Assembly: GCA_030429235.1 (NCBI GenBank)
Contig: JAUIDB010000010.1
Coordinates: 13,334 to 77,333, forward strand
Direction: 5' to 3'
DNA from: Thermoanaerobaculia bacterium
Lineage (GTDB): Bacteria > Acidobacteriota > Thermoanaerobaculia > Multivoradales > JAIOJS01
DNA: 64,000 bases
The translations under genes were made by a program, and so were the position numbers. Positions within the stretch are counted from its first letter, which is position 1, and the number at the start of each line of letters is the position of its first letter. The notes below the pieces were generated by a model, which saw nothing but the letters and a program-made list of their open reading frames with translations, made no database searches and was not told the origin of the DNA. Of the stretch, positions 1-43,309 are shown piece after piece.

Positions 1-920
1 GCTACTTGGGCCATCTGCTGGTAGGAGGGTCGGTCCGCGACGTCGAACTAGCCAATGGCCACGCCTACCTGGCAGGCAGCGGAGGCTTTACGGTATTGGA
101 TACTTCGTCACCGTGGATGCCAACTGTGTCTGCGAGGTTTGAAACCCAGGGCCGAGCCCTTGATGTCTCGTTGGATTCTGGATTGGCCTATGTTTCCGTC
201 GATGGTCCCGAGGGCCTGTTGATTTATGACTTGGGAGACCCAGGAGTCCCGGTGCTGCTCGGTTCACTTGCGTCGGCATCCGCAGCCGAAGAGGTTTCCG
301 TTAGGGGCGGCTATGCGTTCTTGGCATCACCCTTTCTTGATCTGAAGATCGTTGATATCAGCGTTCCGTCAGCGCCAATCGAAGTTGCTTCGGTAGTAGC
401 CGGGGCCTCCCAGACGACCGCCCTCAATGGCGACTACGCCTATAGCGCCGGTTCTCAACTGGCGGTCATCGATGTCTCCGTTCCGTCCAACCCGGTGGTT
501 CTGGCCTCTCAGGGGTTGCCCTTCTCAATAAGCGACTCTGCAGTTCGCAATGGGGTGCTCTACTTCTCCTCTTCCGGCCTGCGCGTTTTTGACACTGTCG
601 ATCCTCTTTCTCCGAACCAAATCGGATTGCTGTCTCTGGCGGGAGGTTCTTCCCACGATTTGGTCCTCGAGGCCGACCTCGTCTACCTGGCTGCCGGCCT
701 AGGTGGTGTTCGGGTAGTAGATGTTTCTGCGCCCACGGCACCTCGGCAAGTAGCGTATCGCGGTACCTCGTACGCTCGTGGAATTGCGGTTGGTGGTGAT
801 CGGGTTGCTGTAGCCAAGGACGGGCAAGGTCTGTCGATTCTGCAAGGCTGCGCAGGGCTGCTTTTTGCCGATGGTTTTGAGTCCGGGGATACCGTGGCCT
901 GGCCCCAGAGTAGTCCGTAG
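1..920 (+). CDS. Secreted LVIVD-repeat beta-propeller-like protein, 5'-truncated by the window edge, with a C-terminal FADGFESGDTVAW tail
   Basis: ORF 6..920 stays open to the window start. It contains repeated ~45-aa units resembling LVIVD repeats ('LAVIDVSVPSNPV', 'LKIVDISVPSAPI', 'VRVVDVSAPTAP'). It ends with ...LLFADGFESGDTVAWPQSSP. Confidence 0.6.
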   Translation, partial: YLGHLLVGGSVRDVELANGHAYLAGSGGFTVLDTSSPWMPTVSARFETQGRALDVSLDSGLAYVSVDGPEGLLIYDLGDPGVPVLLGSLASASAAEEVSVRGGYAFLASPFLDLKIVDISVPSAPIEVASVVAGASQTTALNGDYAYSAGSQLAVIDVSVPSNPVVLASQGLPFSISDSAVRNGVLYFSSSGLRVFDTVDPLSPNQIGLLSLAGGSSHDLVLEADLVYLAAGLGGVRVVDVSAPTAPRQVAYRGTSYARGIAVGGDRVAVAKDGQGLSILQGCAGLLFADGFESGDTVAWPQSSP

Positions 921-1197: not shown

Positions 1198-2661
1198 ATG
1201 ATCCGACTGAACCAGCTCCGCTTGCTGACCCTCTTGGTCACGATCGCCGCCGCCCTGCTGCTTGCGAGTCCCTCCGCCTCGACGGAGGCGGGGGAGACCT
1301 CCGATCTGCTGCTGATTCTCGACGCCTCGGGGTCGATGTGGGGGCAGATCGACGGCGAGAACAAGATCGTCATCGCTCGTCGCGTCATGGCGGGCCTGAT
1401 CGAGGGGCTTCCGGACGAGAGCGAGGTGGGGCTGGTGGCCTACGGGCATCGCCGTGAGGGCGACTGCGAGGACATCGAGACCGTAGTGCCGATCGGGCCG
1501 CTCGACCGCGGTGCCCTCACCGGGCGGATCGGGGAGCTCAACCCCAAGGGCAAGACGCCGATCACGCGTTCGGTCGAGGAGGCGTTCGCCTCGGTTCGGG
1601 GGCGGGAGGAGCCGACCACGATCGTGCTGGTCAGTGATGGACTGGAGACCTGTGGGGGCGACCCCTGTGCCACCGTGCGCGCGGCGGCGGAGGAGGGGAT
1701 CGACTTCGTGCTCCACGTGGTGGGTTTCGACGTCGCCAAGGAGGACGTCTCGTCGCTCGAGTGTGCGGCCCAGGCGGGGAACGGGCTCTACCTGACGGCG
1801 GAGACCGCAGGGGAGCTGGGAGCGGCGCTGGATCGGGCGGTGGCGATGCCGGCCGAGGTGCCGGGGGGGCGGCTGTCGGTCAAGGTGATCGCCGATGGCG
1901 AACTGGCCGACGCCGCGGTCCACGTCACGCGGTCCGCCGACGGTGAAGAAGCTGGTGGCGGACGCACGTACACCAGTCCCGAGACGAATCCGCGCATCAT
2001 TCCGCTGGCCGATGGTACCTACGACGTCGAAGTGACCGCGGTCGGCCTGCGCGGCGACAACCAGCGAACCTTCGCCGAGGTGGTCATCGCCGAGGACGGC
2101 GAGATGGTGGAGAAGGTAGTCGACTTCACCGCCGGCGAGGTCACGATCGAGGTCACCCGCAACGGCGAGCTCTCGGACGCCACCGTCCGCGCCTACCGCA
2201 GCGGCACCACCGAGCAGGTCGATGCCAGCCGGAGCTACGCCGCTTCCTCCTCGAACCCGGTACGGTTTCGCCTCACCGCCGGCACCTACGACGTAGAGAT
2301 CGGCTCGGTCGAGATGAGCGACAAACCCGAGCACCGCTGGGAAGGCGTGGTCATCGAACCGGGCGGACTCGCCGAACTCTCGCACGACTTCACCAGCGGC
2401 ACCTTGAAGGTCGGCGCCACCCTGGCCGGCGAACTGGTCGACGCCACCACCTCGGTCCGCCGGGTCTCCGACGGCAAGGCAGTGGCCCAGGGCCGAACCT
2501 ACACGAGCCCCAAGTCGAATCCCAAGACCTGGGATCTCGCTCCTGGCCGCTACCGAGTTACGGTCAAGGGGGTACGGCTCGAGGGGGATCCCCGCCGGGA
2601 GGTCGAGTTGGAGGTCCGGGCAGGTGAGATCACCGAGACGATGGTTGAGTTCGACGGGTGA
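1198..2661 (+). CDS. Secreted von Willebrand factor A (VWA) domain protein with repeated C-terminal beta-sandwich-like modules
   Basis: ATG at 1198 with a GAGGA RBS 8 nt upstream. It has an N-terminal signal peptide and a VWA MIDAS motif 'ILDASGSM'...'LVSDGLETCGG', followed by repeated 'RTYTSP(E/K)(T/S)NP' modules. Confidence 0.8.
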   Translation: MIRLNQLRLLTLLVTIAAALLLASPSASTEAGETSDLLLILDASGSMWGQIDGENKIVIARRVMAGLIEGLPDESEVGLVAYGHRREGDCEDIETVVPIGPLDRGALTGRIGELNPKGKTPITRSVEEAFASVRGREEPTTIVLVSDGLETCGGDPCATVRAAAEEGIDFVLHVVGFDVAKEDVSSLECAAQAGNGLYLTAETAGELGAALDRAVAMPAEVPGGRLSVKVIADGELADAAVHVTRSADGEEAGGGRTYTSPETNPRIIPLADGTYDVEVTAVGLRGDNQRTFAEVVIAEDGEMVEKVVDFTAGEVTIEVTRNGELSDATVRAYRSGTTEQVDASRSYAASSSNPVRFRLTAGTYDVEIGSVEMSDKPEHRWEGVVIEPGGLAELSHDFTSGTLKVGATLAGELVDATTSVRRVSDGKAVAQGRTYTSPKSNPKTWDLAPGRYRVTVKGVRLEGDPRREVELEVRAGEITETMVEFDG

Positions 2662-3672: not shown

Positions 3673-3934
3673 ACTGGTTCTACGCTGTGGCCGAGAGAAC
3701 CGTCCAACGTGTGAGTTTCTGGCCGGACCGCGGCGACCGCGGGAGTTCCTGTCTCACCAGACGGACCATTGTGCGGTTTGCGAGCCGGCTCGATAGCAAC
3801 TGATGAAGCTCCCCACTGACTGAGGGCAGTTCCTGCTCGTGCTTCAACTGCTTCTTTGGGTTCGAGGCGAGTGGAGTAGGCGGAAGTGCAGCCGGTGCTT
3901 GCTCTGCATTCGTCGAGACACTCGATGGTCCACG

Positions 3935-3950
3935 TGGCACGTCAGTTGCT
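3935..3950 (+). promoter_or_regulatory. Sigma-54 (RpoN) -24/-12 promoter candidate upstream of the Kelch-like gene
   Basis: TGGCACG-tcag-TTGCT matches the TGGCACG-N4-TTGC(A/T) consensus with correct GG-to-GC spacing. It sits ~123 nt upstream of the ATG at 4073 on the same strand. Confidence 0.55.
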
Positions 3951-4072: not shown

Positions 4073-5392
4073 ATGTTCAATCTCAAGAATCTAGTCATCG
4101 CGACGATTTGCCTTCTGGCGATCCCGGCTGTGCTGCCGGCGCAGTGGGTAATCAACGGTTGGATGCCGGCGGGCACGGTACCGATCGACTACCCGCCCAG
4201 TCCGTTCTTTGCTGCAAGCTACCAGGGACACCTGTTCGTAATGGATGGAGTGACCGCTTGGGTTGGAGAGGTAGACCCCTCGACCGGCAACATCCTGAGC
4301 TGGGAGGAAACCACGGCACCCGATCGGACCCAGTACCGAGCAGCTTTGGTGCCCACGAGTGCGGCCGTCGTGGGTGACTACATCGTGATACCCCATGAAC
4401 CCGAGTCGCTGGTCGCTCGGTTCAACAGCGACGGATCGATCGACGGGGACTGGCTTCCAGCCCCCGGACTCGTCAATGCAAGAGCCACGACCGGTGTTGG
4501 AGCGACCGCCGTGTCAGGCTCCTTCCTCTACGTCGTGGGGGGACATGGGCCCGGCTCGGCCCTGGGACGTGTAGAGGGAACTCTCGTCAACCAGGACGGC
4601 ACCCTGGCTCCCTGGCAAGACCTTGGATCCCTACCGGCCCCCGTGATCCTCCACGACCCAAGGGCTGATGTGATCGATGGCTTCCTCTACGTGTTCGGAG
4701 GAGAAGGAACGTCGCCTTCGGGCTCCTTGACCCACTCTCGGAACGTTCACCGGGCCCAGATTCAGCCAGACGGTACGCTTGGATCCTGGGTCAAGGTCGG
4801 TGACATGCTGCAGGCTCGCCCGCATGCCGGCCACCTGCTTGCAAACGGATCCGTCCATGTGGTTGCCGGCGGTGTTCACTCCTACATGACAAGTTCGGTG
4901 GAGTCAGCGACTCTTGCCGAGTTTGGGGAGACCGGGAGTCATATCCAGAACGCTCCCTTGCCCTACTCTCCGGGCCTCAACGAACTGGCTACGGCCGTAG
5001 TGGGGTCTTGGGGTTACGTCGTTGGTGGGAACACCCGACCGTTCGGTGGTGGTTTGGTTGCGGATGTTCTCGTCGCTCAGCTCGCACCCCTTTGCTCGGC
5101 CGATGGCGGCCCGTTTCATTTCGTTCGTCGACGTGGGAAGCCCAGGACAGAGTCTGCATCCTGGGTCGGATGCGGGGGCTCAGGGACGCTGCGGATCCTC
5201 AACAGCGGCACTTCTTCCGCGGTTGTTGTGCTCAACGGGGGCGAAGTAGCAGGGCCACAAGACTTCAACCCCAACGTGCAGGTCCTCGAGATTCCGATTC
5301 TGGACCTACCGACCGAGAACACCTTGGAGGTGACCATGAGGGGAGCTCCGGGTTCGAGTCTGCAGATCTCGTTCATAGCAGCAGGCTCTTGA
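4073..5392 (+). CDS. Secreted Kelch/galactose-oxidase-like beta-propeller protein (hypothetical)
   Basis: ATG with an AAGGGG RBS, a signal peptide (MFNLKNLVIATICLLAIPAVLPAQ), and repeated 'LYVVGG'/'LYVFGGEG'/'YVVGGN' Kelch-like motifs. The 5' end has locally lower GC. Confidence 0.6.
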   Translation: MFNLKNLVIATICLLAIPAVLPAQWVINGWMPAGTVPIDYPPSPFFAASYQGHLFVMDGVTAWVGEVDPSTGNILSWEETTAPDRTQYRAALVPTSAAVVGDYIVIPHEPESLVARFNSDGSIDGDWLPAPGLVNARATTGVGATAVSGSFLYVVGGHGPGSALGRVEGTLVNQDGTLAPWQDLGSLPAPVILHDPRADVIDGFLYVFGGEGTSPSGSLTHSRNVHRAQIQPDGTLGSWVKVGDMLQARPHAGHLLANGSVHVVAGGVHSYMTSSVESATLAEFGETGSHIQNAPLPYSPGLNELATAVVGSWGYVVGGNTRPFGGGLVADVLVAQLAPLCSADGGPFHFVRRRGKPRTESASWVGCGGSGTLRILNSGTSSAVVVLNGGEVAGPQDFNPNVQVLEIPILDLPTENTLEVTMRGAPGSSLQISFIAAGS

Positions 5393-5685
5393 TTCCGGCC
5401 CCTTCGCTTCAGTTGGCGAGCAAGACCACAGTAGGCCAGGGCGTCCTACTGTGGTCTTGGGCCTGATGATCGAGACTCTCTATCCAGGACCAGAGCTCCT
5501 TGGCTCGCCCGAAGTCGTACTGGGGCACCGGCGTCGGAGCCGGGCGCGTTCTTTGGGCGACGTTTCGGTCGCGATGAGCTTCGGTTTTGGGAGTAAGAAC
5601 AGGCGACGATCGTGTCACCGGAAGTGGCTGCAGGTCATAGCATGGCCAAACTAGGACCGAGCTGGATCATCACTCCTTGGGTTCG

Positions 5686-6804
5686 CTAGCCCGTCCTTGG
5701 CGACCTACGCGATGGTGAGATCGCGGCTGAGCTTGCCCGGAAGAAGATCAACGCCGAGAGTAGCGGGCCACCGAGTATGAGCATGAATCCAGAGAACGCC
5801 CTCACAGCCACGTTCTGAATACTGAGGTAGTAGTCCACGAGATGACTCGAGTATTGCCAGGCGTATTGGACCGTGGCGATCGCGATGAGGGCTGAGATAG
5901 CCGGTGCGGCATACCGACGGAGCCACTCTTGGCGTTTGAAGAATGCCGAGATGGGAGCCACTAGAACGGAAAACACCACCAGCATTACGGTCAAGGCCAC
6001 AGAAGCCCGAATCCAGAGGTTCATAACGCCCTTCTGGGTCAACAGGTCTCTCATTCGCTGGCTTTTGGCATGGTCTCGTGCTAGCTTGCCATCCAGGTCT
6101 CGAATGTTGACGTCAGCTCCCATGGCGATTAGTACTTCCGCTACCTGTGTGTAGTCCTCTCTGACCGCGGCCATCAACGGTGTAGTGCCGTCCTGTGCAG
6201 TCGCATCGACTTCGAGGTGTCTTCCGCTGTCTCCGATCTCGGTGAGGATTTCATGGTGACCCCGGGCCGCTACAAACCACAGTGGCGCCGCACCTTCAGG
6301 CCCACCTTTCAGGTTCAGGTTCGCACCGCCGCTGACGAGTTCCCGGAAGACCTCCAGTCGGCCCCGTTTGGCAGCAATGACGAGGGGTGTCTCTCCAAGG
6401 CTGTTTCTCGTGTCGATGTCTGGCATCCTGTCTTGAGCTAGGAGGAGCCTCAGGGTCTGCGTATCTGCGTTTCTTGCGGCTACGTGTAGGACAGTGTCTC
6501 CTGGGGCCATTTCCACAGAGTCGCCTGCTCCCTCAGGGACACGAAGAAAGGCGTCGGCTCCGTTGGCAAGAAGAAGTCGTGCTAATCCGGTACGGCTTCG
6601 GGAGATCGCCCAGAGCAGGGCTGAGATGCCCTCTCCATCCAGTTGGTTCGCATCGCCGGTGTTGGCCAGAGCCGAGAAGAGTTCCTTGACGTTCCCGGAC
6701 TTGGCTGCGGAGACCAGTTTCCCCTCGTTCGCCGCCGCTTGGCTGCTTGCCACGGTAGTCGCAGCCAGCACAAGAGCCACTTTTCCAGCTATACCGAGAT
6801 TCAC
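5686..6804 (-). CDS. Ankyrin-repeat protein with a C-terminal multi-pass membrane domain
   Basis: Signal peptide, then at least five ANK repeats ('GISALLWAISRSRTGLARLLLANGADA', 'GDTVLHVAARNADTQTLRLLLAQ', 'GETPLVIAAKRGRLEVFRELVSGGANLNL', 'GTTPLMAAVREDYTQVAEVLIAMGADVNIRD') and about three C-terminal TM helices. GC is lower than in the flanks. Confidence 0.8.
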   Translation of the reverse strand: MNLGIAGKVALVLAATTVASSQAAANEGKLVSAAKSGNVKELFSALANTGDANQLDGEGISALLWAISRSRTGLARLLLANGADAFLRVPEGAGDSVEMAPGDTVLHVAARNADTQTLRLLLAQDRMPDIDTRNSLGETPLVIAAKRGRLEVFRELVSGGANLNLKGGPEGAAPLWFVAARGHHEILTEIGDSGRHLEVDATAQDGTTPLMAAVREDYTQVAEVLIAMGADVNIRDLDGKLARDHAKSQRMRDLLTQKGVMNLWIRASVALTVMLVVFSVLVAPISAFFKRQEWLRRYAAPAISALIAIATVQYAWQYSSHLVDYYLSIQNVAVRAFSGFMLILGGPLLSALIFFRASSAAISPSRRSPRTG

Positions 6805-7619
6805 CGAGACTCACCCTTCCGAGACAGTTCGAGTTGAATTGATTGGAGTGACTCCCCAGTTCCTGCTAGGAAGCGAGATACCGCCTGCTTTTTTTCTGGC
6901 CGGAGATCTAGGGTTGCCGGACAGAGCCTCTTCTTCGTACAGCTGATACGGGATCGTTCCCACTCGTCTATGGATTGCGCCAACTCGAGCAGTCGAAGCG
7001 CTACGGTTTCTCGCTGTCGTTCGTAGCTATCGATTCTGTGAGACAGGGTGTTCTCGGTCCGTTCGGTTGTCTCCCGGACCGCAGTGAGTTCCTTTTTCGT
7101 CTCATAGAGCTGTTCGAGTGTTTCGTTGGCTTTGGCTTGCAGGTCCACAAGTTCGTCCTCGACGGTTTGTATGTGCGCCCCGACCCCAGCGAGTAGAAGC
7201 TCGAAACTCGTACGGATTTCCGAGCGCACTTCGTCGTCGTAGTTCTGAAGCTGCCCCTCCACTTGACGAAAGACCTTCTCTCGATGATCGTTAAAGGCGC
7301 TGGGAATTTGGTCTACGTACTGCATCACCTGCTCGTTGAGTTCGAGGTGTCTACGCACCAGATCGTCGTGTTCACTCCGAAGTACTGATAGCTCGACTTC
7401 GTGAATCCGGAGTTCCTTCCGGAGGTCGGCCGTCAACTCGTTCGCTCGCTGAAGCTGATCTGAACAGCCCTGGCCTTCGGACCTGCATCTCTTGAGATCC
7501 CTTTCGCAGCAGGCTGCGGTGCCACTGATAAGAAAGACGAGCAGTAGCCGAGTCGGCAACGAGCGGCTCCGGCGGTGGAGGCTCCTTTCAGATCGAACCA
7601 TCATGGATTCTTTGTCCAT
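6801..7619 (-). CDS. Coiled-coil lipoprotein (hypothetical), probably co-transcribed with the ankyrin gene
   Basis: ATG at 7619 with an AAGGAG RBS and a signal plus lipobox-like 'LISGTAAC'. A long heptad-rich coiled-coil region follows. There is a 4-nt overlap with the downstream ankyrin gene. Confidence 0.6.
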   Translation of the reverse strand: MDKESMMVRSERSLHRRSRSLPTRLLLVFLISGTAACCERDLKRCRSEGQGCSDQLQRANELTADLRKELRIHEVELSVLRSEHDDLVRRHLELNEQVMQYVDQIPSAFNDHREKVFRQVEGQLQNYDDEVRSEIRTSFELLLAGVGAHIQTVEDELVDLQAKANETLEQLYETKKELTAVRETTERTENTLSHRIDSYERQRETVALRLLELAQSIDEWERSRISCTKKRLCPATLDLRPEKKQAVSRFLAGTGESLQSIQLELSRKGESR

Positions 7620-7684
7620 CCGATCTCCTTCTTCCGAGGCCTTCTCGGGCGGCCTTCACAAAACAACTCGTGGGGCCATGGATC

Positions 7685-7700
7685 TGCAAGGCCCGGGCCA
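7685..7700 (-). promoter_or_regulatory. Sigma-54 -24/-12 promoter candidate for the coiled-coil/ankyrin operon
   Basis: The minus strand reads TGGCCC-gggcc-TTGCA, ~65 nt upstream of the ATG at 7619. GG and GC spacing is correct, but the match sits in a GC-palindromic context and could be chance. Confidence 0.35.
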
Positions 7701-7820
7701 AGCCCTCCCGGAGGCCTGGGTATGTCTGGACGCGATTTCCGGCGCGACCCCGAGTGCAAGCAGGTGAAGAGACTGGCTGTGGACGTTGCTAAGCTAGTGT
7801 CTACCCGTGTCTCTCGGAAG

Positions 7821-10577
7821 ATGCGCGCTCCTGACACAATAGGGCCAGCAATGAACAGAGACGGGGATCAGGGTGTCCCATCGGTTCCGAGCCCGGCCCT
7901 AGCAGCCGGAGCCACCTTCCGCTCCCGCTACGAGATCGTCGAACGGCTCGGTCAGGGCGGCTACGCCGAGGTGTACCGGGCTCAGGATCTAGAGATCGAT
8001 CGCGAGGTCGCCTTGAAGATCCTGCGGCCGGATCGGACGAGTGACGCTTCGGTACGCCGGCTGAAGCGGGAGGCGGCGGTGGCCCGGGATGTGGAGAGTC
8101 CTCATCTGGTTCGGGTCTTCGAGGTGGATACGTCGACTCTGCCGGCGTTTCTCACCATGGAGGTGGTGGAGGGGGGCAGCCTGCTGGAGGAGATCGCGGC
8201 GGGCCCGGTGCCGATCGAGCGGGTGCTGGAGGTGGCGCGGCAGGTACTCCTCGGGTTGGAAGCGCTGCACGGAATGGGGATCCTGCACCGGGACATCAAG
8301 CCCAGCAACGTGATGATCACGTCGGACGGCCAGGTGAAGCTGGCCGACTTTGGGATGGTCCACCAACTCTCGCGAGAGTCGACGCGGCTGACCGAGTCTT
8401 CGGCCATCGTGGGGACGATCGACTACGTGGCTCCGGAGACGGTTCTCGGCGATCCGCCCGACGGTCGAGCCGATCTCTACGGGCTCGGGTTGTTGCTGTT
8501 CGAGATGCTCACGGGGAGCCTGCCCTTCGGTGACTCCCCTTCGGCTCTCGGCGCTGCGTTGGAGCGCCTGCACCGATCACCGCCTCGGGTGGTACCGCTC
8601 CGACCAGAGACCCCCCGTTGGCTAGAGAAGGTCGTCCTGAGGCTCCTCGAACGACGTCCGGAAGACCGTTTCGCGAGTGCCGAGGCCGTGCGCCGCGCCT
8701 TGCGCGAGCATCGTGTGCCGCGATCTCGTCGGGTGTGGCGACGGAACGCCTGGCTGGCGGCGGGGATCGTGCTGGCCAGTGTCGCGAGCGCCTGGGTGCT
8801 GGCGAGGATAGGGGGATCGATCCCGGTCCTCTCGCACATCACGGCGCAGGAACCGGAGCCGGGCCTCTTCGGGCTCTCGGCTGACGGTGAGGTGCTGTGG
8901 CATCGGCCCGACCTGAGGTCCGGTTGGTGGGTCACTGCCCAGTCGAGTTCGGGGGGCGGACCGATTCCCCTCGGGTTGCGGGCCGGGGCCGGGCCACAGG
9001 ATCTGGAGGTGCTGCACCAGTTGCTGGTTCTCGATCCCACCAGCGGGGAGACGGTGGACCGAGTGACGCTGCCTTCGGCGGGAGATGAGTTTCCCGGTTT
9101 TGCACCGCGGTTCCAGCCGGAACTCCACGCGGTCGACATCGATGGAGATGGCGGCGAGGAGGTGGTGGTCACCTACTTTCACACCTACTGGCCCTCGTAC
9201 ACCGTGGTCTATGAACCCAGATGGCGCCGGGCGCGGGTGGCGCTGTTGGCGGCGGGGCACCACCGCCCGGTCGGCGTGGCCGACGTGGATTCTGACGGCA
9301 ACAACGAACTGATCTTCCTGGGAGTTTCGAACCGCATGGGTTGGTACGCTGGGCTGGCCGCAGTTTCGATGGTGCCTCCGATCAACCGGCCGGGAGAGGC
9401 GACGCTGAGTACGGCGGCGGCCACGACGCCGGACGGCTACTTCCTCAGGCGATGGCGGGGCATGGTTTGGTACGCGCTCGCTCCGCCCGGGATCTGGTGC
9501 TCCGGGATCGGCACCTGTACCGAAGTGGACCCCGATGCTCGTGAGATTCGCCTGGAACCCCCCGGCGGCTCGCAAGTGCGCTACTCGTTCGACGGGTACC
9601 TAGTGGAAGACCGGGTCTCCGGCCTCGATTCGGCGGAGCGGAACCGCCGCCGGGGTCGCGCCTACAAGCACCTGGAGGAAGCGGGGCGGCTGCTCGATTC
9701 GCGGCTCGAAGATTGGGGCGAGGAGGAGGCCGAGCGAGCGGTGGAGTTGGCTCGTACGGTCCGCGACCGCTTCCTTACCGACTGGGCCCTGCGCACGCTG
9801 GGGAGGATCGTGATCGAGCGCGGACGAATCGAGGAAGGAGAGCAGATCTTCGAACAACTCTCGGTCGACTCTCCAGCTGCTACCAGCGCCGCCTTCGAGG
9901 CCGCCCACGCGCTGCAATTGGCTGGCCGCCCGGATCGCTCTCTCGATTGGTACCCGCGGGCCTTCGGCGCCGCTGGGGACTGGGGACCGGGCCGCAGTCG
10001 CGACCGGCTGGTTCGGGGGTTGTTGTTGGCCTACAGCGAGATCGGTGACTACGAAGGAGCACAGAAGGCCCTCGACCGGTTCAGCAATCCCGGGCAGATC
10101 ACGTCGCGAATCGACACGTATCTGAGGCCCTACGTCGCCTGGCGGATGGAGGATCGATCCGTAGCCCCCATGCCCTACCGCGCGGGGAACCCCGATCTGG
10201 AGGTCTATTGGAGCCTCGAGCAGGCGCTGGCTCACGGTACCGAACTCGAAGTCCTTTGGGAACGGGTGCAACTCGCCATGGACCAGAGTTCGGAGGAATT
10301 GCCTTTGCTGCAGAATCTGGCCGGTGAGATCCAATGGAAGATGGGTCGCCGTGCGGAGGCTTTGGTCTGGTTCGAGAGGGCTTTCGCGGGAGGTGAAGCG
10401 GAGCTCGAGCGGAGTATCTCGGTCCGTGCCCACTTCGATCTGATCGTCAGCCGACTGCTGCGGGGAGTCCGCGACGCAGGCCTCGAGACCAGAAGCAGAG
10501 AGATCGCGAGCGTGGCGGAAGCCTGGGATTCTCATCAGCGGCAGCTGCGTCATCTCATGTCTGTCAGAGGGCAGTAA
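7821..10577 (+). CDS. Hanks-type Ser/Thr protein kinase with a TM segment, FG-GAP/VCBS-like repeats and C-terminal TPR-like region
   Basis: Kinase subdomains 'LGQGGYAEVYRA', 'VALKIL', 'HRDIKPSNVM', 'DFGM' and 'APE' are present. There is a TM segment after the kinase, 'DIDGDGGEEVVV'/'DVDSDGNNELIFLG' repeats, and a TPR-like C-terminus. The ORF opens at 7575 but overlaps the convergent gene. Start chosen at the ATG at 7821 (7851 is also possible). Confidence 0.8.
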   Translation: MRAPDTIGPAMNRDGDQGVPSVPSPALAAGATFRSRYEIVERLGQGGYAEVYRAQDLEIDREVALKILRPDRTSDASVRRLKREAAVARDVESPHLVRVFEVDTSTLPAFLTMEVVEGGSLLEEIAAGPVPIERVLEVARQVLLGLEALHGMGILHRDIKPSNVMITSDGQVKLADFGMVHQLSRESTRLTESSAIVGTIDYVAPETVLGDPPDGRADLYGLGLLLFEMLTGSLPFGDSPSALGAALERLHRSPPRVVPLRPETPRWLEKVVLRLLERRPEDRFASAEAVRRALREHRVPRSRRVWRRNAWLAAGIVLASVASAWVLARIGGSIPVLSHITAQEPEPGLFGLSADGEVLWHRPDLRSGWWVTAQSSSGGGPIPLGLRAGAGPQDLEVLHQLLVLDPTSGETVDRVTLPSAGDEFPGFAPRFQPELHAVDIDGDGGEEVVVTYFHTYWPSYTVVYEPRWRRARVALLAAGHHRPVGVADVDSDGNNELIFLGVSNRMGWYAGLAAVSMVPPINRPGEATLSTAAATTPDGYFLRRWRGMVWYALAPPGIWCSGIGTCTEVDPDAREIRLEPPGGSQVRYSFDGYLVEDRVSGLDSAERNRRRGRAYKHLEEAGRLLDSRLEDWGEEEAERAVELARTVRDRFLTDWALRTLGRIVIERGRIEEGEQIFEQLSVDSPAATSAAFEAAHALQLAGRPDRSLDWYPRAFGAAGDWGPGRSRDRLVRGLLLAYSEIGDYEGAQKALDRFSNPGQITSRIDTYLRPYVAWRMEDRSVAPMPYRAGNPDLEVYWSLEQALAHGTELEVLWERVQLAMDQSSEELPLLQNLAGEIQWKMGRRAEALVWFERAFAGGEAELERSISVRAHFDLIVSRLLRGVRDAGLETRSREIASVAEAWDSHQRQLRHLMSVRGQ

Positions 10578-10638: not shown

Positions 10639-12414
10639 ATGCTGCGTTTTGTCGCCCGGAACGAGGGCCAGGAGCGTCGATTTCCGATCGCGGCCGATGG
10701 CGTGTGGACCGTAGGCTCGGCGATCGAGTGCGAACTCTCTGTCCCCTTCGACGGGGTCTCGCGGCGGCATGCCAGCCTCGAGCGCCGGGGAAGCCGAGTC
10801 TGGCTCACGGATTGTGGTTCCAAGAACGGCCTCAGGGTGGAGGGGCGGGTCGAGGCGCAGATCGAACTGCTGCCAGGGATTCGGGTAGACCTCGGTGGCA
10901 CGGTGGTCGAGATCGAAGAGGCAGCGTCGTCGGATACACGATTCGCGGTCGAGCTGCGGCGTTCGTCGAGCGTGGCTTCTCGACTGCGCACCAGTACGGC
11001 GGGAGCGATGGCCGGCGACGGACGTTCTTCACCCGCTGCCGCGCTCGCCTTCGTTCGGCGGTTCGAGCGAGCGTCGCTCCAACCGGGCTCGGAACTCTGG
11101 TCGCGACTCGTCGCCGAGACTCTGGAGATCCTCGAGGCCGAAACCGTGGCGGTGCTGCAGCGGGTTCCCGGGGAGCCTCGCGAGGTGTTGGAACAGTGCT
11201 GGGGCAGGCACCGGGTGCCAGGAGCCGAGGTAGAGGATCCGTGGAGCGCGGCCCAGCTCTCGGCCGAACTGGAAGGGGAATCGGCCAGAATCGTGGCCAT
11301 CCTGGGCCAGGGGGCCAAGGTCGATCGCTGGAAGGAGGACTTCTTCTCCTACCTGGCGACCCGCTGGCAGGAGCAGCGTCACGACCCTCCCGCTCCTCGC
11401 GCCCAGCCGGCCCAGGTCGAGCCGGAACGAGGCCCCGTGGTTCTCGGGCGCTCCGCCGCCATGGTAGAGGTCGAAACGCTGGCTCGGGCCGCGGCCGAGA
11501 GTGGTCTCAACGTCGTGCTCCTCGGCGAGACGGGGACCGGCAAGGAGGTTCTCTCACGCTTCATCCATCGTCTGCGTGCCACCGGGAAGGGTGAGCTGGT
11601 AGCGATCAACTGCGCTGCGATTCCCTCCGAACTCCTCGAAGCCGAACTCTTTGGCGTTGCCAGCCGAGTGGCGACCGGCGTAGATCCCCGCGAGGGGCTC
11701 TTCGTGCGCGCCCACGGGGGAACCCTTCTCCTGGACGAGATTGGCGAGATGCCCTACACGCTGCAGGCGAAACTGCTGCGAGCGCTCCAGGAGCGGGAGG
11801 TCATGCCGGTGGGAGGGCGACGGCCGATGCCGGTCGATCTTCGAGTCATCTCGACGACGCACCGTCCCCTGGCTCGGCTCGTGGCCGAGAAGAAGTTTCG
11901 CGCTGATCTCTACTACCGACTCCGCGGACTCGAGATCTGGCTTCCACCCCTCCGAGAGCGACTCGAAGACATTCCGGAGTTCGCCACTCTCTTTGCCCAG
12001 AGAGCAGCCCGTGCTTCGGGAAAGCGGGTCCGCGGGATCACCGAGCGTGCGCTGCGGCTTCTTACCTGCCACCGCTGGCCCGGCAACGTGCGGGAACTCG
12101 AGACCGACATGGAACGCGCTGTGGCGTTGTGTGCCGACGGAGGCAGCATCGACTCGCGGCTCTTCTCCCACCTGGATCCAGTCGCGGGACGACCTAGTTC
12201 CGTCTCGGTGCTCGAAGCCCCGACCTCGAGGGCCGTGGCGCCCAAGGCTGGCCACTCTACGGTCACACTGCGGGAGGAACTCGACGCTACCGAGCGCGAG
12301 CGAATCCGACGAGAGCTGGCGCTTTCGGGCGGCAACAAGTCGGAGGCCGCTCGAAGGCTCGGGGTGACCTGGAATGGGCTGGTGATGAAGATGAAGCGAT
12401 TGGGGTTACGGTAG
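10639..12414 (+). CDS. Sigma-54-dependent transcriptional activator (bEBP) with an N-terminal FHA domain and C-terminal Fis-type HTH
   Basis: ATG with a GGGGGAGG RBS. The FHA core is 'VGSAIECELSVPFDGVSRRHASLERRGSRVWLTDCGSKNGLRVEG'. The AAA+ sigma-54 interaction domain has a 'LLGETGTGKE' Walker A, 'GGTLLLDEIGEM', and 'FRADLYYRL'. The HTH is 'GNKSEAARRLGVTWNGLVMKMKRLG'. Confidence 0.85.
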   Translation: MLRFVARNEGQERRFPIAADGVWTVGSAIECELSVPFDGVSRRHASLERRGSRVWLTDCGSKNGLRVEGRVEAQIELLPGIRVDLGGTVVEIEEAASSDTRFAVELRRSSSVASRLRTSTAGAMAGDGRSSPAAALAFVRRFERASLQPGSELWSRLVAETLEILEAETVAVLQRVPGEPREVLEQCWGRHRVPGAEVEDPWSAAQLSAELEGESARIVAILGQGAKVDRWKEDFFSYLATRWQEQRHDPPAPRAQPAQVEPERGPVVLGRSAAMVEVETLARAAAESGLNVVLLGETGTGKEVLSRFIHRLRATGKGELVAINCAAIPSELLEAELFGVASRVATGVDPREGLFVRAHGGTLLLDEIGEMPYTLQAKLLRALQEREVMPVGGRRPMPVDLRVISTTHRPLARLVAEKKFRADLYYRLRGLEIWLPPLRERLEDIPEFATLFAQRAARASGKRVRGITERALRLLTCHRWPGNVRELETDMERAVALCADGGSIDSRLFSHLDPVAGRPSSVSVLEAPTSRAVAPKAGHSTVTLREELDATERERIRRELALSGGNKSEAARRLGVTWNGLVMKMKRLGLR

Positions 12415-21447: not shown

Positions 21448-23745
21448 TTGTCCGTGCTTTCTTGCGTTCCGAAGACTGGTTTCGAAGCAGCAGCGAGTGG
21501 ATCGACCGGCCATGAGTTCAGCGCTAGTTCACTTCGGCCGTCGACCGACCCGGTACGGATTCTCGGTTTGACGCTCGGAAACAAGGGGGCCGACTGGCTG
21601 CGCCATGGGGTGGTCTTGTGGCTCGTGTCGTTGGCACTAGGCTGCAGCTCCGAGGCACCCTGGAACGTCTTGCTGGTGACTCTCGACACCACCAGGGCGG
21701 ACTTCCTCGGCTGCTACGGCAAGACCTCCGCGCAGACTCCCGTTCTCGACCAACTGGCCGAAAGGGGGACTCTCTTCGAGAGCGCCTATACCTCGAATCC
21801 GGTAACCCAAGCCGCGCACTCGACCATTCTCACCGGGGTCTACCCCATGGTTCACGGAGTGCGAGACAACATTCTCTTTCGCCTTCCCGAGGAGATGACG
21901 ACCCTCGCTGAGCATCTTCGGGTCGCTGGCTACGCGACCGGTGCCGCGGTCGGTGGCTTTCCCTTGACGCGGGAGTTCGGGACCGCACAGGGTTTCGACT
22001 TCTATGACGACGACTTGACCCATGGCCGCACAGATTTCCGGGGCCGGCCGATTCCGGATCGGCTCGCTACTTGGTACGACGAGCGTCCCGCGCCGCAGGT
22101 CAACGATGCGATTCTCAGCTGGCTCCGCGAAGATCGGTCGGTTCCATTCTTCGCCTGGGTGCACTATTGGGATCCGCACGAACCCCACATCGCTCCGTCG
22201 CCCTTCAGAGAACTGTTCATCGACGATCCCTACCAGGCCGAAATCGCCTACGCCGATCAAAGCCTGGGTGCACTACTCGACGCTCTGGAGCGTGCTGGCG
22301 AACGGCACCGCACTCTCGTCGTGGTGACCGCAGACCACGGCGAGGGACGGGGCGAACACCGCGAGAGCACACACGCGTTTCTTGCGTACGATGCCACGCT
22401 CCGCGTGCCGTTGATTGTCAGCGCGCCCGATCAAGCGCAGAACCGGAGGATTGCGGAACGCGTCGGCACGGTCGACATCGTGCCGACCATCCTGGATCTT
22501 CTCGATCTACCGTCCAGTGACCAGCTTCAGGGACGATCTCTGGCGCCGCTGATGCGCCAGCCTGCTGCCTCCGACAGTGTGGCGACCCCGCGCCATCGCA
22601 CTCCCTACTACAGTGAGAGTCTGTCGCCCCGGCTCTCTCATGGACTCGGAGAGCTTCGAGCCCTGTTCCTAGGTCCTTGGAAGTACGTCCACGGGCCTCG
22701 ACCGGAGCTGTTTCATCTGGGTCGCGACCCCGGCGAGCTTCGTGACCTCATCACGGTCGAGACAGCCCAAGCCGAATCGATGAGATCCCAGTTGCAGGAG
22801 TTCCTGCACGCAAGGAAGAGCAAAGAGGTGACGAAGGCCTTGCATGACATCGATGAAGAAACGCGGCAGAGATTGGCAGCCCTGGGCTACCTCGCCTCCA
22901 TGCCGGGTACCGGCGAGCAGGTCGACGAGATCCTGCGCTCTGATGGCGAAGCTCCCCAGGACCGTGTGGGCGACATCAACCTCCAGAGCCGTTTGAGAAG
23001 ACAGCTCGGAGTGCGACACTTCGCTGCCGCGGAGCGCACGGCTCGATCGCTGTTGATGGCCGCGCCCGAGAACACCTTCTACCTGAAGTCCCTCGTGGCG
23101 GCGCAACTCGGGCTCGACAAACCTGAGGAGGCGGCCCGCGAGCTGCTCGCCGTGACGCCGTCGGCTGCGCTTGGCCCTCAGTTCCTAGCAGTTGGCCAAG
23201 CTCTCTTCGACTCTGGCGCGGAGGTTCGAGGCCTCGAGCTGATTCGGCGAGGCATCGAAGCTGGAGACGTGGCCAACGGCGAAGCGCAGCTGGCCAGGCT
23301 GCTGCTTGCGTCCGACGACATCGAGGGATTCCAGCAAGCCACGAAGCGGGCTCTCGAGGCCGATCCGGAGCATCGAGGATCCCGTCTGGAACGGGCTCGC
23401 TACTACCTGGCGACCGACCGACTGCGTGAAGCAGAAAGCGATCTGCTGCGGCTCTTGCGCGCGAACCCTATCGACCCCGAAGTGCATCTGGAGTACGCGG
23501 GTCTGCTCCGTAGGGAAGGGCAGTCCGAGGCAGCGGAAAGGCGCTTGCTGCGCGTCCTGCGACTCGCACCGCACTGGTGTGACCCCTACCTGGAGCTGAT
23601 CCGGTTGCATCGAGAAGCCCTCCGGCCAGCGGAGGCTTCCGAGGTCTTGGGACGGATGCGCACACACTGCACCGACGCAAGCCAACTTTCCCATGCCGCC
23701 ACTCTTGCCGTGGCGATGGACACAGCTGGAGGATACCGCCCGTGA
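21448..23745 (+). CDS. Sulfatase-like (alkaline-phosphatase superfamily) lipoprotein with Thr at the nucleophile position and a C-terminal TPR domain
   Basis: The lipobox is 'LVSLALGCSS'. 'LLVTLDTTRADFLGCYG' carries the metal-binding Asp. 'NPVTQAAHSTILTG' aligns to the sulfatase 'CSPSRAALLTG' with C to T and R to H. 'VVVTADHGEG' is present, and TPR repeats fill the last ~300 aa. The true start may be a GTG nearer the lipobox. Confidence 0.75.
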   Translation: MSVLSCVPKTGFEAAASGSTGHEFSASSLRPSTDPVRILGLTLGNKGADWLRHGVVLWLVSLALGCSSEAPWNVLLVTLDTTRADFLGCYGKTSAQTPVLDQLAERGTLFESAYTSNPVTQAAHSTILTGVYPMVHGVRDNILFRLPEEMTTLAEHLRVAGYATGAAVGGFPLTREFGTAQGFDFYDDDLTHGRTDFRGRPIPDRLATWYDERPAPQVNDAILSWLREDRSVPFFAWVHYWDPHEPHIAPSPFRELFIDDPYQAEIAYADQSLGALLDALERAGERHRTLVVVTADHGEGRGEHRESTHAFLAYDATLRVPLIVSAPDQAQNRRIAERVGTVDIVPTILDLLDLPSSDQLQGRSLAPLMRQPAASDSVATPRHRTPYYSESLSPRLSHGLGELRALFLGPWKYVHGPRPELFHLGRDPGELRDLITVETAQAESMRSQLQEFLHARKSKEVTKALHDIDEETRQRLAALGYLASMPGTGEQVDEILRSDGEAPQDRVGDINLQSRLRRQLGVRHFAAAERTARSLLMAAPENTFYLKSLVAAQLGLDKPEEAARELLAVTPSAALGPQFLAVGQALFDSGAEVRGLELIRRGIEAGDVANGEAQLARLLLASDDIEGFQQATKRALEADPEHRGSRLERARYYLATDRLREAESDLLRLLRANPIDPEVHLEYAGLLRREGQSEAAERRLLRVLRLAPHWCDPYLELIRLHREALRPAEASEVLGRMRTHCTDASQLSHAATLAVAMDTAGGYRP

Positions 23746-37493: not shown

Positions 37494-38888
37494 CTAGGTC
37501 TGGTCGTCCTGCTCCGGTCGGGCAATGCCGAGACTGTTCATCTTCTGATGGAGATGGGTCCTCTGCAGTTCGAGCAGGCGGGCGGCAGCGGCCACGTTCC
37601 AGCCCGTGCTGGCGAGGGCGCGTCGGATGTGGCGGGCCTCGGCGATCTCCTTGAACCGGCGAAAGGGGAGTACGGGGCCGTCGAAGGGGTCGTCGCCATC
37701 GGCTCCGCTCTCAGAGGTCCGGGGATCGAGCATCTCGACCGGTAGCTGCTCGGGAGTGACGGGGTCGGTGCCAAAGACGACGAGCCGCTCGGTCAGGTTT
37801 TCGAGTTCGCGAACGTTGCCGGGCCACGGGTACTGTTCGAGGATCGGATAGACGGCCTCGGTGGCGGCGAGTTGGCGCACGCGGTGGCGAGTCCAGGCCC
37901 GACGGAGAAAGTGGTCGAAGAGGAGCCGGATGTCTCCGGAGCGCTGGCGCAGCGGAGGGACTTCGATCGGCAGGTGGGCGAGGCGGAAGTACAGGTCCTG
38001 TCGGAAGGACTGGTTCCGGATGCCCTCCTCCAGTTGGGCGTGGGTGGCGGCGAGGACCCGCACGTCGACCTCTCGGTCGCGGGTCTCGCCGATGCGGCGG
38101 ACGCGGCCGTCCTCGAGAACCCTGAGGAGGCGGGACTGTAACCGGTAGTCCATGTCGCCGATCTCGTCGAGGAAGAGGGTCCCGCCGTGAGCCTCTTCGA
38201 AAAGGCCCCGTTTGTCGCTGGCGGCGCCGGTGAACGCTCCCTTGACGTGGCCGAAGAGCTCGTCCTCGACCAGATCCTGCGGGATCGCGGCGCAGTTGAG
38301 TTTGATGAAGGGTTGGCGCGCCCGTGGGCTGCCGCGATGGATGGCGTCGGCCACGAGCTCCTTGCCGGTACCACTCTCGCCGAGGATGAGGACCCGACCC
38401 TCGGTCGGGGCCGCTTTGGCGATCGCCTCGCGGAGGGCCAGCATGGCCGGCGACTCGCCGATCAGTTCCGACTGGCCGCGCAGCTCGGACTCGAGGTCCT
38501 GGACCCGCGTTCTCAGGCTGGAGTGTTCGAGGGTGTTCTCGATCGATCGGCGGAGGCGCTCGGTACTGAACGGCTTCTCGATGAAGTCGTGGACGCCGAG
38601 CTTGAGGGCCTCGACCGTCTCGGCGATCGAGGCCTCCCCGGAAACGATGATCGTCGGCGGGAGACGATCCGACTCGGCCAGGCGTCGGATCAACTCGACG
38701 CCGCTCAGGCCGGGCAAACGCACGTCGACCAGCATCAGGCCCGGAGGGTTGTCGGGTCGGGAGTCGAGCCATTCCAGGGCCGCCTCGGCGGTGTCGGTGG
38801 CCGCGGCCCGGTGTCCCGCCTCTTTGAGCTGGAAGAGCAGGTTGGCGCGAATCCTCGGATCGTCCTCGACGACGAGAACCTCGATCAT
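37494..38888 (-). CDS. NtrC-family sigma-54-dependent response regulator (REC plus AAA+ plus Fis HTH)
   Basis: The REC domain has the phospho-acceptor in 'LMLVDVRLPGLSG'. 'ILGESGTGKE' and 'GAFTGA'/'ELFGH' are present. The HTH is 'GWNVAAAARLLELQRTHLHQKMNSLGI'. A 4-nt overlap with the upstream kinase. Confidence 0.85.
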   Translation of the reverse strand: MIEVLVVEDDPRIRANLLFQLKEAGHRAAATDTAEAALEWLDSRPDNPPGLMLVDVRLPGLSGVELIRRLAESDRLPPTIIVSGEASIAETVEALKLGVHDFIEKPFSTERLRRSIENTLEHSSLRTRVQDLESELRGQSELIGESPAMLALREAIAKAAPTEGRVLILGESGTGKELVADAIHRGSPRARQPFIKLNCAAIPQDLVEDELFGHVKGAFTGAASDKRGLFEEAHGGTLFLDEIGDMDYRLQSRLLRVLEDGRVRRIGETRDREVDVRVLAATHAQLEEGIRNQSFRQDLYFRLAHLPIEVPPLRQRSGDIRLLFDHFLRRAWTRHRVRQLAATEAVYPILEQYPWPGNVRELENLTERLVVFGTDPVTPEQLPVEMLDPRTSESGADGDDPFDGPVLPFRRFKEIAEARHIRRALASTGWNVAAAARLLELQRTHLHQKMNSLGIARPEQDDQT

Positions 38889-43060: not shown

Positions 43061-43309
43061 GGTGTCTCCTGGTCGGTGGAAAGGGTTCGATGCCTCTGAC
43101 GACAGCAATGACCTTGCCAACCTCGGGGGCGGAGGGCTCGGGTGGAGCGATCCTGGCCGATCCGAAGGTTGAGAAGAATCGGGGCCGGTCGGCGCCTCGT
43201 GTCCGAGAGGGGCGAGTCGTTCGTAGCCACCGACGGTGGTGTCTGGGAAACCAGACGGTTCCGCACCATGGAGCCCCGGTCACTGCCCGTTGGAAACGGA
43301 GGAATCGTC

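Follow-up and report, generated by a model that had tools for sequence, protein, structure and literature searches.

Bacterial proteins with ANK repeats are mostly interpreted as host-directed effectors. Among the closest described systems is AnkB of Pseudomonas aeruginosa, a periplasmic ANK protein encoded in the katB-ankB operon (Howell et al. 2000, PMC94626, via PMC12754779). By description only, as far as the account relayed in that source goes, the protein presented here resembles AnkB in that a bacterial ANK-repeat protein is sent to the periplasm (here by prediction) and made together with a partner from an operon induced by stress or a signal, and both would act in the bacterium's own envelope rather than on a host. 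In contrast to AnkB as so described, an orphan lipoprotein with a coiled coil takes the place of a catalase as the partner, and the ANK protein has a C-terminal three-helix anchor without a homologue in our searches and a sigma-54-type promoter. The ANK proteins of sponge symbionts and of 'Ankyphages' possess a signal peptide, lack any transmembrane segment and are presumed to act on host cells after secretion (10.1101/608950). Like these proteins (10.1101/608950), ours begins with a signal peptide and continues with ANK repeats, but it keeps the three-helix membrane anchor, and one of its sources is a biofloc community. With the Dot/Icm Ank effectors of Legionella and Coxiella only the ANK repeats are in common, the scores lying far under the family cut-offs and the window (the whole 64-kb stretch of DNA analyzed) containing no type IV secretion system.

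With respect to regulation, FHA-domain enhancer-binding proteins (hereafter abbreviated as bEBPs) of Myxococcus xanthus were reportedly described by Jelsbak, Givskov and Kaiser in 2005. They have the same FHA-AAA+-HTH architecture as the bEBP encoded at the present locus and presumably relay signals from Hanks-type Ser/Thr kinases to sigma-54 promoters. Here, by contrast, the kinase gene lies in one operon with the bEBP gene and the pair is conserved, the L1 loop reads RVATGV instead of GAFTGA, and the arginine of the FHA Gly-Arg pair is missing.

The reading that we favour, with a probability of roughly 55%, is a lineage-specific envelope operon of two genes, transcribed from a sigma-54 promoter under control of the receptor Ser/Thr kinase and FHA bEBP that are encoded divergently. 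Given this promoter and the adjoining kinase/FHA-activator pair, the ANK/lipoprotein operon looks like a regulated envelope module rather than a symbiosis effector. As judged from sequence searches, it is restricted to the present acidobacterial lineage and both of its products are orphans.

The gene pair and its products

Both genes lie on the minus strand, the orphan lipoprotein gene (6801..7619, 272 aa, ATG start) preceding the gene of the ANK membrane protein (5686..6804, 372 aa, GTG start), and they share the 4 nt GTGA, just as an earlier note on this DNA had claimed. Together with the Shine-Dalgarno sequence AAGGAG (7625..7630, minus strand), situated 5 nt before the lipoprotein ATG, this overlap is evidence for an operon, and it would couple translation of the ANK protein to that of the lipoprotein. 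The locus is 100% identical across three assemblies, with zero sequence variation in both operon genes.

The lipoprotein has a signal peptide with a lipobox of the PS00013 type, LVFLISGTAAC, which matches the pattern {DERK}(6)-[LIVMFWSTAG](2)-[LIVMFYSTAGCQ]-[AGS]-C; the rule also asks for the Cys to lie within residues 15-35 and for K/R near the N-terminus. The candidate lipidated Cys is residue 37 when counted from the ATG at 7619 and residue 32 if Met6 is the start, lipidation being predicted. The long coiled coil proposed in the earlier note agrees with two predicted long amphipathic helices (~46-124 and 129-229), which are followed by a C-terminal helix; the hydrophobic periodicity of 3.6 residues exceeds that of 500/500 shuffles. 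Single-sequence AF2 modelling, used for both proteins as a guide to secondary structure only, gives two helices of ~75-100 residues at pLDDT ~80 (overall 67), and the transcript would encode a lipoprotein with a helical hairpin of ~11-15 nm. Cys residues are paired at positions 45/52 and 227/233. Among candidates taken from 5.8 billion clusters, none qualified as a homologue at E<=0.01, and Foldseek returned no match to the model in the PDB.

The ANK protein belongs to its family on the basis of several repeats above the Pfam gathering thresholds, with Ank_2 at 4.3e-28 (98.2 bits, cut-off 27.3) and Ank at 3.4e-27 (93.4 bits, cut-off 21.1), and ~6.5 repeats can be counted in residues ~26-259 (nt 6729..6028). 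Its N-terminus, overlooked in the earlier note, is a Sec-type signal peptide, MNLGIAGK-VALVLAATTVA-SSQAAA|NEG (residues 1-25, nt 6804..6730), with an h-region of 11 residues and a small-residue cleavage site. The expected anchor of three transmembrane segments is represented by hydrophobic helices at residues 267-285, 299-316 (the weaker one) and 337-355, all within region 267-355 (nt 6006..5740), where the single-sequence AF2 model, of low confidence overall (pLDDT 57), also has three long helices. K and R residues number four in loop 286-297, none in loop 317-331 and four in the Arg-rich C-terminal tail. Owing to the signal peptide and this charge distribution, the ANK domain is probably periplasmic and membrane-anchored, the topology having been drawn by hand rules with a middle helix that is only weakly hydrophobic. 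The signal peptide would export the ~6.5 repeats and the three C-terminal helices would tether them to the inner membrane.

It is rather improbable that the ANK domain is instead cytoplasmic, its N-terminal hydrophobic stretch being no signal peptide and the protein serving as a membrane-bound adaptor, for example for the kinase/FHA pathway. The cytoplasm is the usual folding place of ANK domains, and the signal peptide and topology were assigned by hand. In such an arrangement, however, loop 286-297 (KRQEWLRR) and the Arg-rich tail would violate or at least strain the positive-inside rule. Moreover, the partner with which the protein is co-translated is a lipoprotein that is exported, and Cys residues are absent from the ANK protein, the paired ones being in the lipoprotein. 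Under the periplasmic topology the two products would, speculatively, most likely form a scaffold for protein-protein interactions, produced only once the kinase pathway has been triggered. The ANK protein looks self-directed, periplasm-tethered and tightly sigma-54-controlled, and would stand next to Pseudomonas AnkB as a second example open to testing.

The divergent kinase and FHA enhancer-binding protein

Annotation of the window ORFs with Pfam identifies, divergent from the operon, a receptor Hanks-type Ser/Thr kinase (7824..10577, plus strand; Pkinase 2.4e-49) with intact VALK, HRDIKPSN, DFG and APE motifs and a single TM helix followed by an FG-GAP/TPR ectodomain; gene callers place its start at 7722, homology favours 7824. 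The next gene (10639..12414, plus strand) encodes the FHA-AAA+-HTH_8 bEBP (FHA, Sigma54_activat, AAA_lid_14 and HTH_8 in Pfam), with Walker A GETGTGK, Walker B DEIG and a C-terminal HTH. In its FHA domain, the signature residues G26, S41, H44 and N63 do not vary within the family and R42 is kept, while the Arg of the canonical Gly-Arg pair is replaced after G26, mostly by A, S or E.

The L1 loop of this bEBP has RVATGV in place of GAFTGA, the Phe being changed to Ala, and the xxATGV form is present in 119 of its 120 closest homologues. Absence of the sigma-54-contacting Phe counts against activation of sigma-54 by this protein. The same Phe of GAFTGA is required for activation in PspF, and the GAFTGA-less relatives TyrR, HupR and Rhodobacter capsulatus NtrC work with the sigma-70 holoenzyme or as repressors. 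On GAFTGA variants in FHA-bEBPs specifically, we found nothing relevant in the literature. A second bEBP of the window, of NtrC type (37494..38888), has the canonical GAFTGA, which indicates that the organism uses sigma-54, even if rpoN is absent from the 64-kb window. This bEBP has its own -24/-12 site (43119..43104).

The comparison with relatives bears on this matter. The kinase-bEBP pair is kept in all six Thermoanaerobaculia relatives, with full-length identities of 37-38% and 43-47%. In each of them TGGAAY/TGGCAT-N5-TTGCW lies in the short intergenic spacer downstream of the bEBP gene, at the beginning of a gene for a secreted protein; the N5 spacers vary and the two blocks are constant. 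In two of them (L163 and L164) the element starts ~58-60 nt before the ATG of the secreted-protein gene. Since four of the six are closely related to one another (target proteins 80-88% identical), this comparative support corresponds to about three independent lineages. In a scan of genome contigs, L003 (68% identity) was the only close relative, on a 2.6-kb contig that lacks the upstream side. Scanning metagenomes with the alignment of the bEBP family picked up generic patterns (WPGNVREL, ELLEAELFG), almost all of the matches listed being ordinary bEBPs, and was set aside.

That the sigma-54 promoter of the operon is real but driven by a different, canonical bEBP, with the RVATGV protein acting perhaps as a partner of the sigma-70 holoenzyme or a repressor, accords with the altered loop and with the presence of a GAFTGA bEBP 30 kb away. 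We nevertheless consider it unlikely, because in 6/6 relatives the -24/-12 element directly follows the gene of the RVATGV-type bEBP and because both strong sites of the window flank the kinase/FHA-bEBP pair, not the NtrC-type gene with its separate site.

If the FHA bEBP is indeed the activator, the extracytoplasmic FG-GAP/TPR domain of the kinase would sense a cue from the envelope or from outside the cell, and autophosphorylation of the kinase would follow; the FHA domain would read phosphothreonine, by analogy with the M. xanthus proteins, and free the AAA+ ring. The bEBP would then remodel RNA polymerase-sigma-54 at TGGCCCG-N4-TTGCA (7700..7685) and probably also at 3935..3950. More tentatively, Thermoanaerobaculia may harbor a large undescribed clade of kinase-coupled FHA bEBPs that still drive sigma-54 promoters with RVATGV in place of the supposedly indispensable GAFTGA loop, and that here could have captured an orphan operon for an inducible periplasmic ANK/coiled-coil scaffold. 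If true, a eukaryote-style pThr-FHA pathway would control eukaryote-style repeat proteins (ANK, Kelch) in a bacterial envelope. The genomic context may even outweigh the operon itself, namely a conserved Ser/Thr-kinase/FHA-bEBP operon, with a loop devoid of the canonical Phe, beside -24/-12 promoters. Should such bEBPs activate sigma-54, they would show the extent of permissible variation in the GAFTGA contact and constitute a compact kinase-to-sigma-54 pathway in the poorly known Acidobacteriota.

Composition, origin and the effector question

The stretch 5686-7700 has a GC content of 57.3%, the lowest of any 2 kb in the window (sliding mean 65.3%, sd 2.4), within the 55-58% estimated by eye in the earlier note; the ~68% given there for the flanks holds only further out, the adjacent gene on the left having 61.5% and the kinase gene 66%. 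Composition of the two operon genes is atypical also in the codon statistics called for in that note (GC3s z = -1.9 and -2.1; codon-bias z = 1.4 and 2.3). Moreover, the region upstream of the kinase gene is different in every relative compared. A horizontal origin of the operon is therefore plausible and compatible with GC3s values near z = -2, the orphan genes and the variable locus, but it is unproven since marks of mobility are lacking: the scan for tRNA genes in the window and the search for flanking repeats at the operon found none, and the Pfam-annotated window has no integrase or mobility genes. Of the features of a genomic island, atypical composition is thus present, whereas tRNA, integrase, direct repeats and donor are not; no donor can be named, and our searches found no close homologue anywhere.

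Homology searches with the ANK domain yielded no close homologue either, the protein resembling others through its ANK repeats only, with <=37% identity. The best matches come from bacteria or metagenomes, Vicinamibacterales and Phycisphaerae among them, and eukaryotic ones score lower, which does not sustain the 'eukaryote-like' origin initially suggested. The three-helix anchor has no real match among 1.84 billion representatives; a single extra match (P0243, 2661 aa), made up of 11 weak stretches in a repetitive surface protein, was judged spurious.

The suggestion that the ANK protein is a horizontally acquired, eukaryote-like effector acting on a host as a symbiosis factor draws on the low GC and atypical codon use, the orphan status of both genes, the Kelch-type protein gene next door and the finding that signal peptide-bearing ANK proteins of sponge-associated phages lower phagocytosis (10.1101/608950). 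We regard it as quite improbable. The phage proteins have no TM segment (10.1101/608950), whereas three hydrophobic helices follow the ANK domain here, so that it is predicted to stay tethered in the periplasm and not to be released. In addition, the annotated window has no secretion system near the operon, and the NCBIfam models of Dot/Icm Ank proteins give 15-71 bits against cut-offs of 450-1400, the best equivalog score for a Dot/Icm T4SS Ank effector being 70.6 bits versus 500; the top matches, too, are bacterial. The symbiont or sponge setting is weakened by the origin of one of the two source runs from an aquaculture biofloc metagenome.

Predicted promoters and transcript ends

The -24/-12 call is the best-supported part of the earlier note, and the element reads exactly as given there. 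This candidate promoter, hereafter promoter B (7685..7700, minus strand; TGGCCCG-GGCC-TTGCA, TGGCCCgggccTTGCA), was recovered by direct reading and by pattern search. Read as TGGCCCGGGCCTTGCA at 7700..7685, it starts 81 nt before the lipoprotein ATG, with 66 nt between motif end and start codon, and lies in a 204-nt divergent intergenic region, pointing at the lipoprotein gene. Spacing is exact, with the GG and GC doublets 10 nt apart within TGGCAC-N5-TTGCW, and 15 of 16 positions fit TGGCACG-N4-TTGCW; the predicted transcription start is ~7674, leaving a 5' UTR of ~55 nt. The pattern TGGCNC-N5-TTGCW occurs twice in the 64-kb window versus 0.15 times expected, both times upstream of exported-protein genes. 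Promoter B has the third-best weighted sigma-54 score of the window, and each of the three best sites lies 45-140 nt before the start codon of an exported-protein gene adjoining a bEBP gene. The divergent FHA bEBP/kinase pair and the -24/-12 elements of all six relatives strengthen its assignment to sigma-54. It is hardly probable that this match arose by chance, with the operon read from an unrecognised sigma-70-type promoter, for although it was called in a single sequence and its spacer contains a GC-rich 10-bp palindrome (GGCCCGGGCC) that readily arises in 65% GC DNA, the rarity of the pattern, its placement in a divergent intergenic region, aimed at a gene and beside a bEBP gene, and the lack of any sigma-70-like site found in 3500-8000 all speak against this.

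The second sigma-54-type candidate, promoter A (3935..3950, plus strand; perfect consensus TGGCACGTCAGTTGCT), lies 123 nt before the gene of an exported Kelch-type beta-propeller protein (4073..5392, plus strand; 439 aa, signal peptide, PDB Kelch chains down to 6e-08), which is convergent with the ANK operon and probably a co-regulated neighbour. Searching 7560-7900 for activator sites revealed no inverted or direct repeats, and no activator-binding repeat upstream of promoter B was convincing. The only 12-mer common to both promoter regions is the candidate activator site CTTCACCTGCTT (7758..7769, minus strand, -69 from promoter B), which agrees at 11/12 positions with CTTCAACTGCTT (3842..3853, -93 from promoter A); with an estimated ~0.34 expected by chance, it is not significant alone. 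The elements conserved in the relatives (CAACTGATCA, GCCAAGC/GCTTGGC) have no clear counterpart at promoter B. In its recognition helix the bEBP reads VTWNGLVMKM here instead of the ITRNGLALKM of the family, so activator sites need not transfer from the relatives.

Folding of the operon 5' UTR is ordinary (z = -0.1) and the Rfam scan was empty. A weak terminator-like hairpin with a U-rich tail (5602..5619, minus strand; -9.3 kcal/mol, z = -1.8) lies 67 nt after the ANK stop codon. Between the convergent genes, a perfect 15-bp inverted repeat forms a strong hairpin (5421..5459; -32.2 kcal/mol, z = -4.7; equalled by 0 of 200 shuffles), which is probably a bidirectional transcript end.

The ankyrin operon and its products

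The minus-strand operon consists of a lipoprotein gene (6801..7619, 272 aa, ATG start preceded by AAGGAG at 5 nt) and an ANK gene (5686..6804, 372 aa, GTG start), read as ORFs from the sequence, which share a GTGA overlap that suggests coupled, roughly stoichiometric synthesis of the two proteins. The ANK protein contains ankyrin repeats recognized by Pfam (Ank_2, 4.3e-28; Ank, 3.4e-27), about 6.5 of which are counted in residues 26-259, followed by hydrophobic helices at 267-285, 299-316 (weaker) and 337-355; its AF2 model, of low confidence (pLDDT 57), has ANK-typical helix pairs and then three long helices. The ORFs, Pfam matches and predicted helices thus bear out the earlier note, which described an ankyrin-repeat membrane protein and a coiled-coil lipoprotein with a 4-nt overlap. 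That note overlooked the N-terminus of the ANK protein, MNLGIAGK-VALVLAATTVA-SSQAAA|NEG, which is built like a Sec signal peptide, with n-, h- and c-regions. Given its cleavage, the ANK domain is predicted to be periplasmic, helix 1 to run out-to-in, loop 286-297 and the tail to be cytoplasmic and loop 317-331 periplasmic. Four K+R residues are found in loop 286-297 (KRQEWLRR), none in loop 317-331 and four R in the Arg-rich tail; the reversed orientation is disfavoured because it would violate the positive-inside rule.

The predicted lipoprotein carries a PS00013-type lipobox (LVFLISGTAAC, Cys37) and a hydrophobic periodicity of 3.6 residues exceeding that of 500/500 shuffles. AF2 models it as two long helices of ~75-100 residues (pLDDT ~80) plus a shorter C-terminal helix, and by our own estimate (1.5 Å per residue) the modeled hairpin would measure roughly 11-15 nm. 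Its Cys residues at 45/52 and 227/233, two pairs at close spacing, and the complete absence of Cys from the ANK protein fit an oxidizing, extracytoplasmic site. The best reading of the two products is an inducible periplasmic scaffold, in which firing of the adjacent receptor kinase would lead to synthesis of an inner-membrane ANK platform and a lipid-anchored coiled coil. Transcription of the operon probably ends at a weak hairpin (5619..5602, minus strand). Another probable transcript end is a very strong hairpin (5421..5459; -32 kcal/mol, z = -4.7) in the interval where the Kelch and ANK genes converge, formed by a perfect inverted repeat of 15 bp around a 9-nt loop and followed by no T-run on either strand.

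Sigma-54-type promoters and the adjoining kinase-bEBP pair

Promoter B (TGGCCCGGGCCTTGCA, 7700..7685, minus strand), noted before as a possible sigma-54 promoter, mismatches TGGCACG-N4-TTGCW at one position only and ends 66 nt before the lipoprotein ATG. The motif TGGCNC-N5-TTGCW has 2 matches in the window versus 0.15 expected, and no sigma-70-like site was found in the region searched (3500-8000). Promoter A, a perfect sigma-54 consensus (TGGCACGTCAGTTGCT, 3935..3950, plus strand), lies 123 nt 5' of the gene for an exported Kelch-type beta-propeller protein (4073..5392, plus strand, 439 aa), which matches PDB Kelch proteins down to 6e-08 and has no match in Pfam. (It adds a second 'eukaryote-like' repeat protein to the locus, its gene being convergent to the ANK operon.) The top three sites in a weighted scan of the window are promoter A, promoter B and TGGCAAGGTCATTGCT at 43119..43104 (minus strand), which lies 45 nt upstream of an ATG (~43060) with AGGAGA in front of it. 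This ATG begins a gene for an exported protein of ~215 aa that opens a string with Omp85-like (40804..42336), histidine kinase (38885..40411) and canonical GAFTGA NtrC-type enhancer-binding protein (bEBP; 37494..38888) genes; this looks like a second sigma-54 unit, probably autoregulated. Each strong -24/-12 match in the window therefore faces a gene start adjoining a bEBP gene. The spacer of promoter B (7690..7699) is a perfect 10-bp palindrome, GGCCCGGGCC; in GC-rich DNA it may have arisen by chance, or it may serve as an operator that overlaps the -24/-12 element.

The gene divergent from that of the lipoprotein encodes a Hanks-type Ser/Thr kinase with VALK, HRDIKPSN, DFG and APE motifs, a single TM helix and an ectodomain of FG-GAP/TPR type. 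Public gene calls start it at ATG 7722 (951 aa, GGAGG 7 nt upstream), which would overlap the divergent promoter region; aligning it with six orthologues favours ATG 7824 (917 aa; MRAPDT vs MPEPDRT), a start that would give a divergent intergenic region of 7620..7823, with ~120 nt upstream of promoter B for activator sites. At 62 nt 3' of the kinase gene follows a bEBP gene of FHA–Sigma54_activat–HTH_8 architecture (10639..12414, plus strand). The FHA domain retains the Gly, Ser-x-x-His and Asn and lacks, as does its whole family, the Arg after the Gly. Instead of the GAFTGA loop, which the NtrC-type bEBP of the window carries in canonical form, this protein has ELFGVASRVATGV; ATGVD.R.G is invariant across the 40-sequence family alignment, and among the 120 closest homologues xxATGV occurs in 119 and RVATGV in 101. 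Activation by PspF requires the Phe of GAFTGA, and the GAFTGA-less relatives TyrR and HupR act with sigma-70. The RVATGV loop thus weakens the claim that the bEBP is a classical sigma-54 activator.

Relatives of the kinase-bEBP pair

The full-length FHA-bEBPs to which the bEBP is related, at 38-50% identity, make up a large family, most named members of which, including its nearest named relatives, are from Thermoanaerobaculia (Acidobacteriota). Six members on long contigs formed our comparative set; four of these loci are fairly close kin (target proteins 80-88% identical), leaving roughly three independent lineages. All six have a ~900-aa receptor Ser/Thr kinase gene directly upstream of the bEBP gene, its product 37-38% identical to that of the window over about 900 residues, and all six have TGGAAC/TGGAAT/TGGCAT-N5-TTGCA/T at exact spacing in the short spacer 3' of the bEBP gene (L162:11819-11834, L163:11817-11832, L164:12797-12812, L165:11883-11898, L166:10904-10919, L167:11996-12011), with both blocks constant and the N5 variable. 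These elements precede a GGAGG-preceded start of a secreted-protein gene (by 58-60 nt in L163 and L164), the product being of Flg_new_2/CBM96 type in five of the six loci. Such adjoining elements argue that the RVATGV family nevertheless works at -24/-12 promoters. With the rarity of the motif, its gene-facing position and the bEBP adjacency, they strongly support the putative sigma-54 promoter before the ANK operon. The kinase-coupled RVATGV-loop family is the most interesting by-product of our analysis.

Upstream of the relatives' elements, CAACTGATCA-like and GCCAAGC/GCTTGGC sequences may be activator sites. A CAGGGAATMAWCCCTG inverted repeat is conserved in L163-L166 in the 5' UTR of the target gene, ~20-45 nt 3' of the -12 element; its fold in L164 is no stabler than shuffles (z = -0.3). 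In the window and in the contig of a 68%-identical relative, L003, convergent genes follow the bEBP gene without a -24/-12 target there, and the sites of the window lie on the opposite side of the kinase gene from those of the relatives. The genes upstream of the kinase vary from relative to relative. Several kb before the kinase-bEBP pair, the window's own contig has a pair of RNA-repair genes, PNKP/Hen1 (L001:18419-21119, just left of the window), and L165 also has a PNKP-type gene (1-757), so placed that PNKP-side genes and kinase-bEBP pair bracket a variable region, which in the window holds the ANK operon. Given the retained pair, the shared PNKP and the variable genes between, the kinase-bEBP block appears to have been inherited vertically, with the ANK operon sitting in a variable slot beside it.

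Origin of the operon and comparison with known systems

The lower-GC patch was confirmed by windowed GC: 5686-7700 has 57.3% GC, the lowest 2-kb stretch in the window (sliding mean 65.3%, sd 2.4). The ANK gene has a GC3s of 0.62 (z = -1.9) and the lipoprotein gene one of 0.61 (z = -2.1), versus 0.77 ± 0.08 for 28 other genes, and Karlin codon bias is elevated (z = 1.4 and 2.3, respectively); the deviation is moderate, yet real. The Kelch-type neighbour is low in composition as well, as is the LVIVD gene at the window start, and in GC3s the LVIVD gene (z = -2.5) and a CBS-domain ORF (61134..62315, z = -2.3) are as atypical as the patch.

A word-indexed search of 5.8 billion clusters gave no homologue of the lipoprotein at E ≤ 0.01. 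The sole high-identity match of the ANK protein is itself; the others are ≤37% identical and repeat-only, since no more than 74% of the query is covered, the named best ones being bacterial (Vicinamibacterales, Phycisphaerae) and eukaryotic ones scoring lower. When the last 121 residues were used to search 1.84 billion representatives exhaustively with HMMER, the only hits were the protein itself and one 2661-aa repetitive surface protein, judged spurious, so that anchor and architecture are orphan. Two Logan assemblies and one NCBI MAG contain identical (100%) copies of the locus. The operon is low in GC and lineage-specific. Of the horizontal origin proposed before, the atypical GC and codon use and this lineage specificity stand in favour, while no tRNA, Rfam hit, integrase or flanking repeat was found in the patch; transfer is plausible but unproven.

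In its regulatory logic the system resembles the Myxococcus FHA-bEBPs, from which it differs by its fixed kinase partner and variant sigma-54-contact loop. Relative to Pseudomonas aeruginosa AnkB (katB-ankB operon), the ANK operon has no catalase partner and its anchor is of another, orphan type. Ankyphage/sponge-symbiont ANK proteins also have signal peptides, lack TM segments and are thought to be secreted (10.1101/608950), whereas the ANK protein here is predicted to be tethered. The earlier framing as a symbiont effector is not supported, given this tethering, Dot/Icm Ank effector models scoring far under their own cut-offs on the protein, and the origin of one of the two source runs, SRR24442553, from an aquaculture biofloc metagenome (PMC10582022).

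Elsewhere in the window, two sulfatases (21448..23745, 56390..58906), the LVIVD-repeat protein (6..920) and a VWA protein (1198..2661) suggest a surface-attached, polysaccharide-degrading lifestyle. Among the relatives, a 21-nt unit, GGGGAGACCCCTCTCCCTCGC, recurs in tandem in 13 copies in L163 (6965-7239, 82% matches), between Fic and kinase genes.
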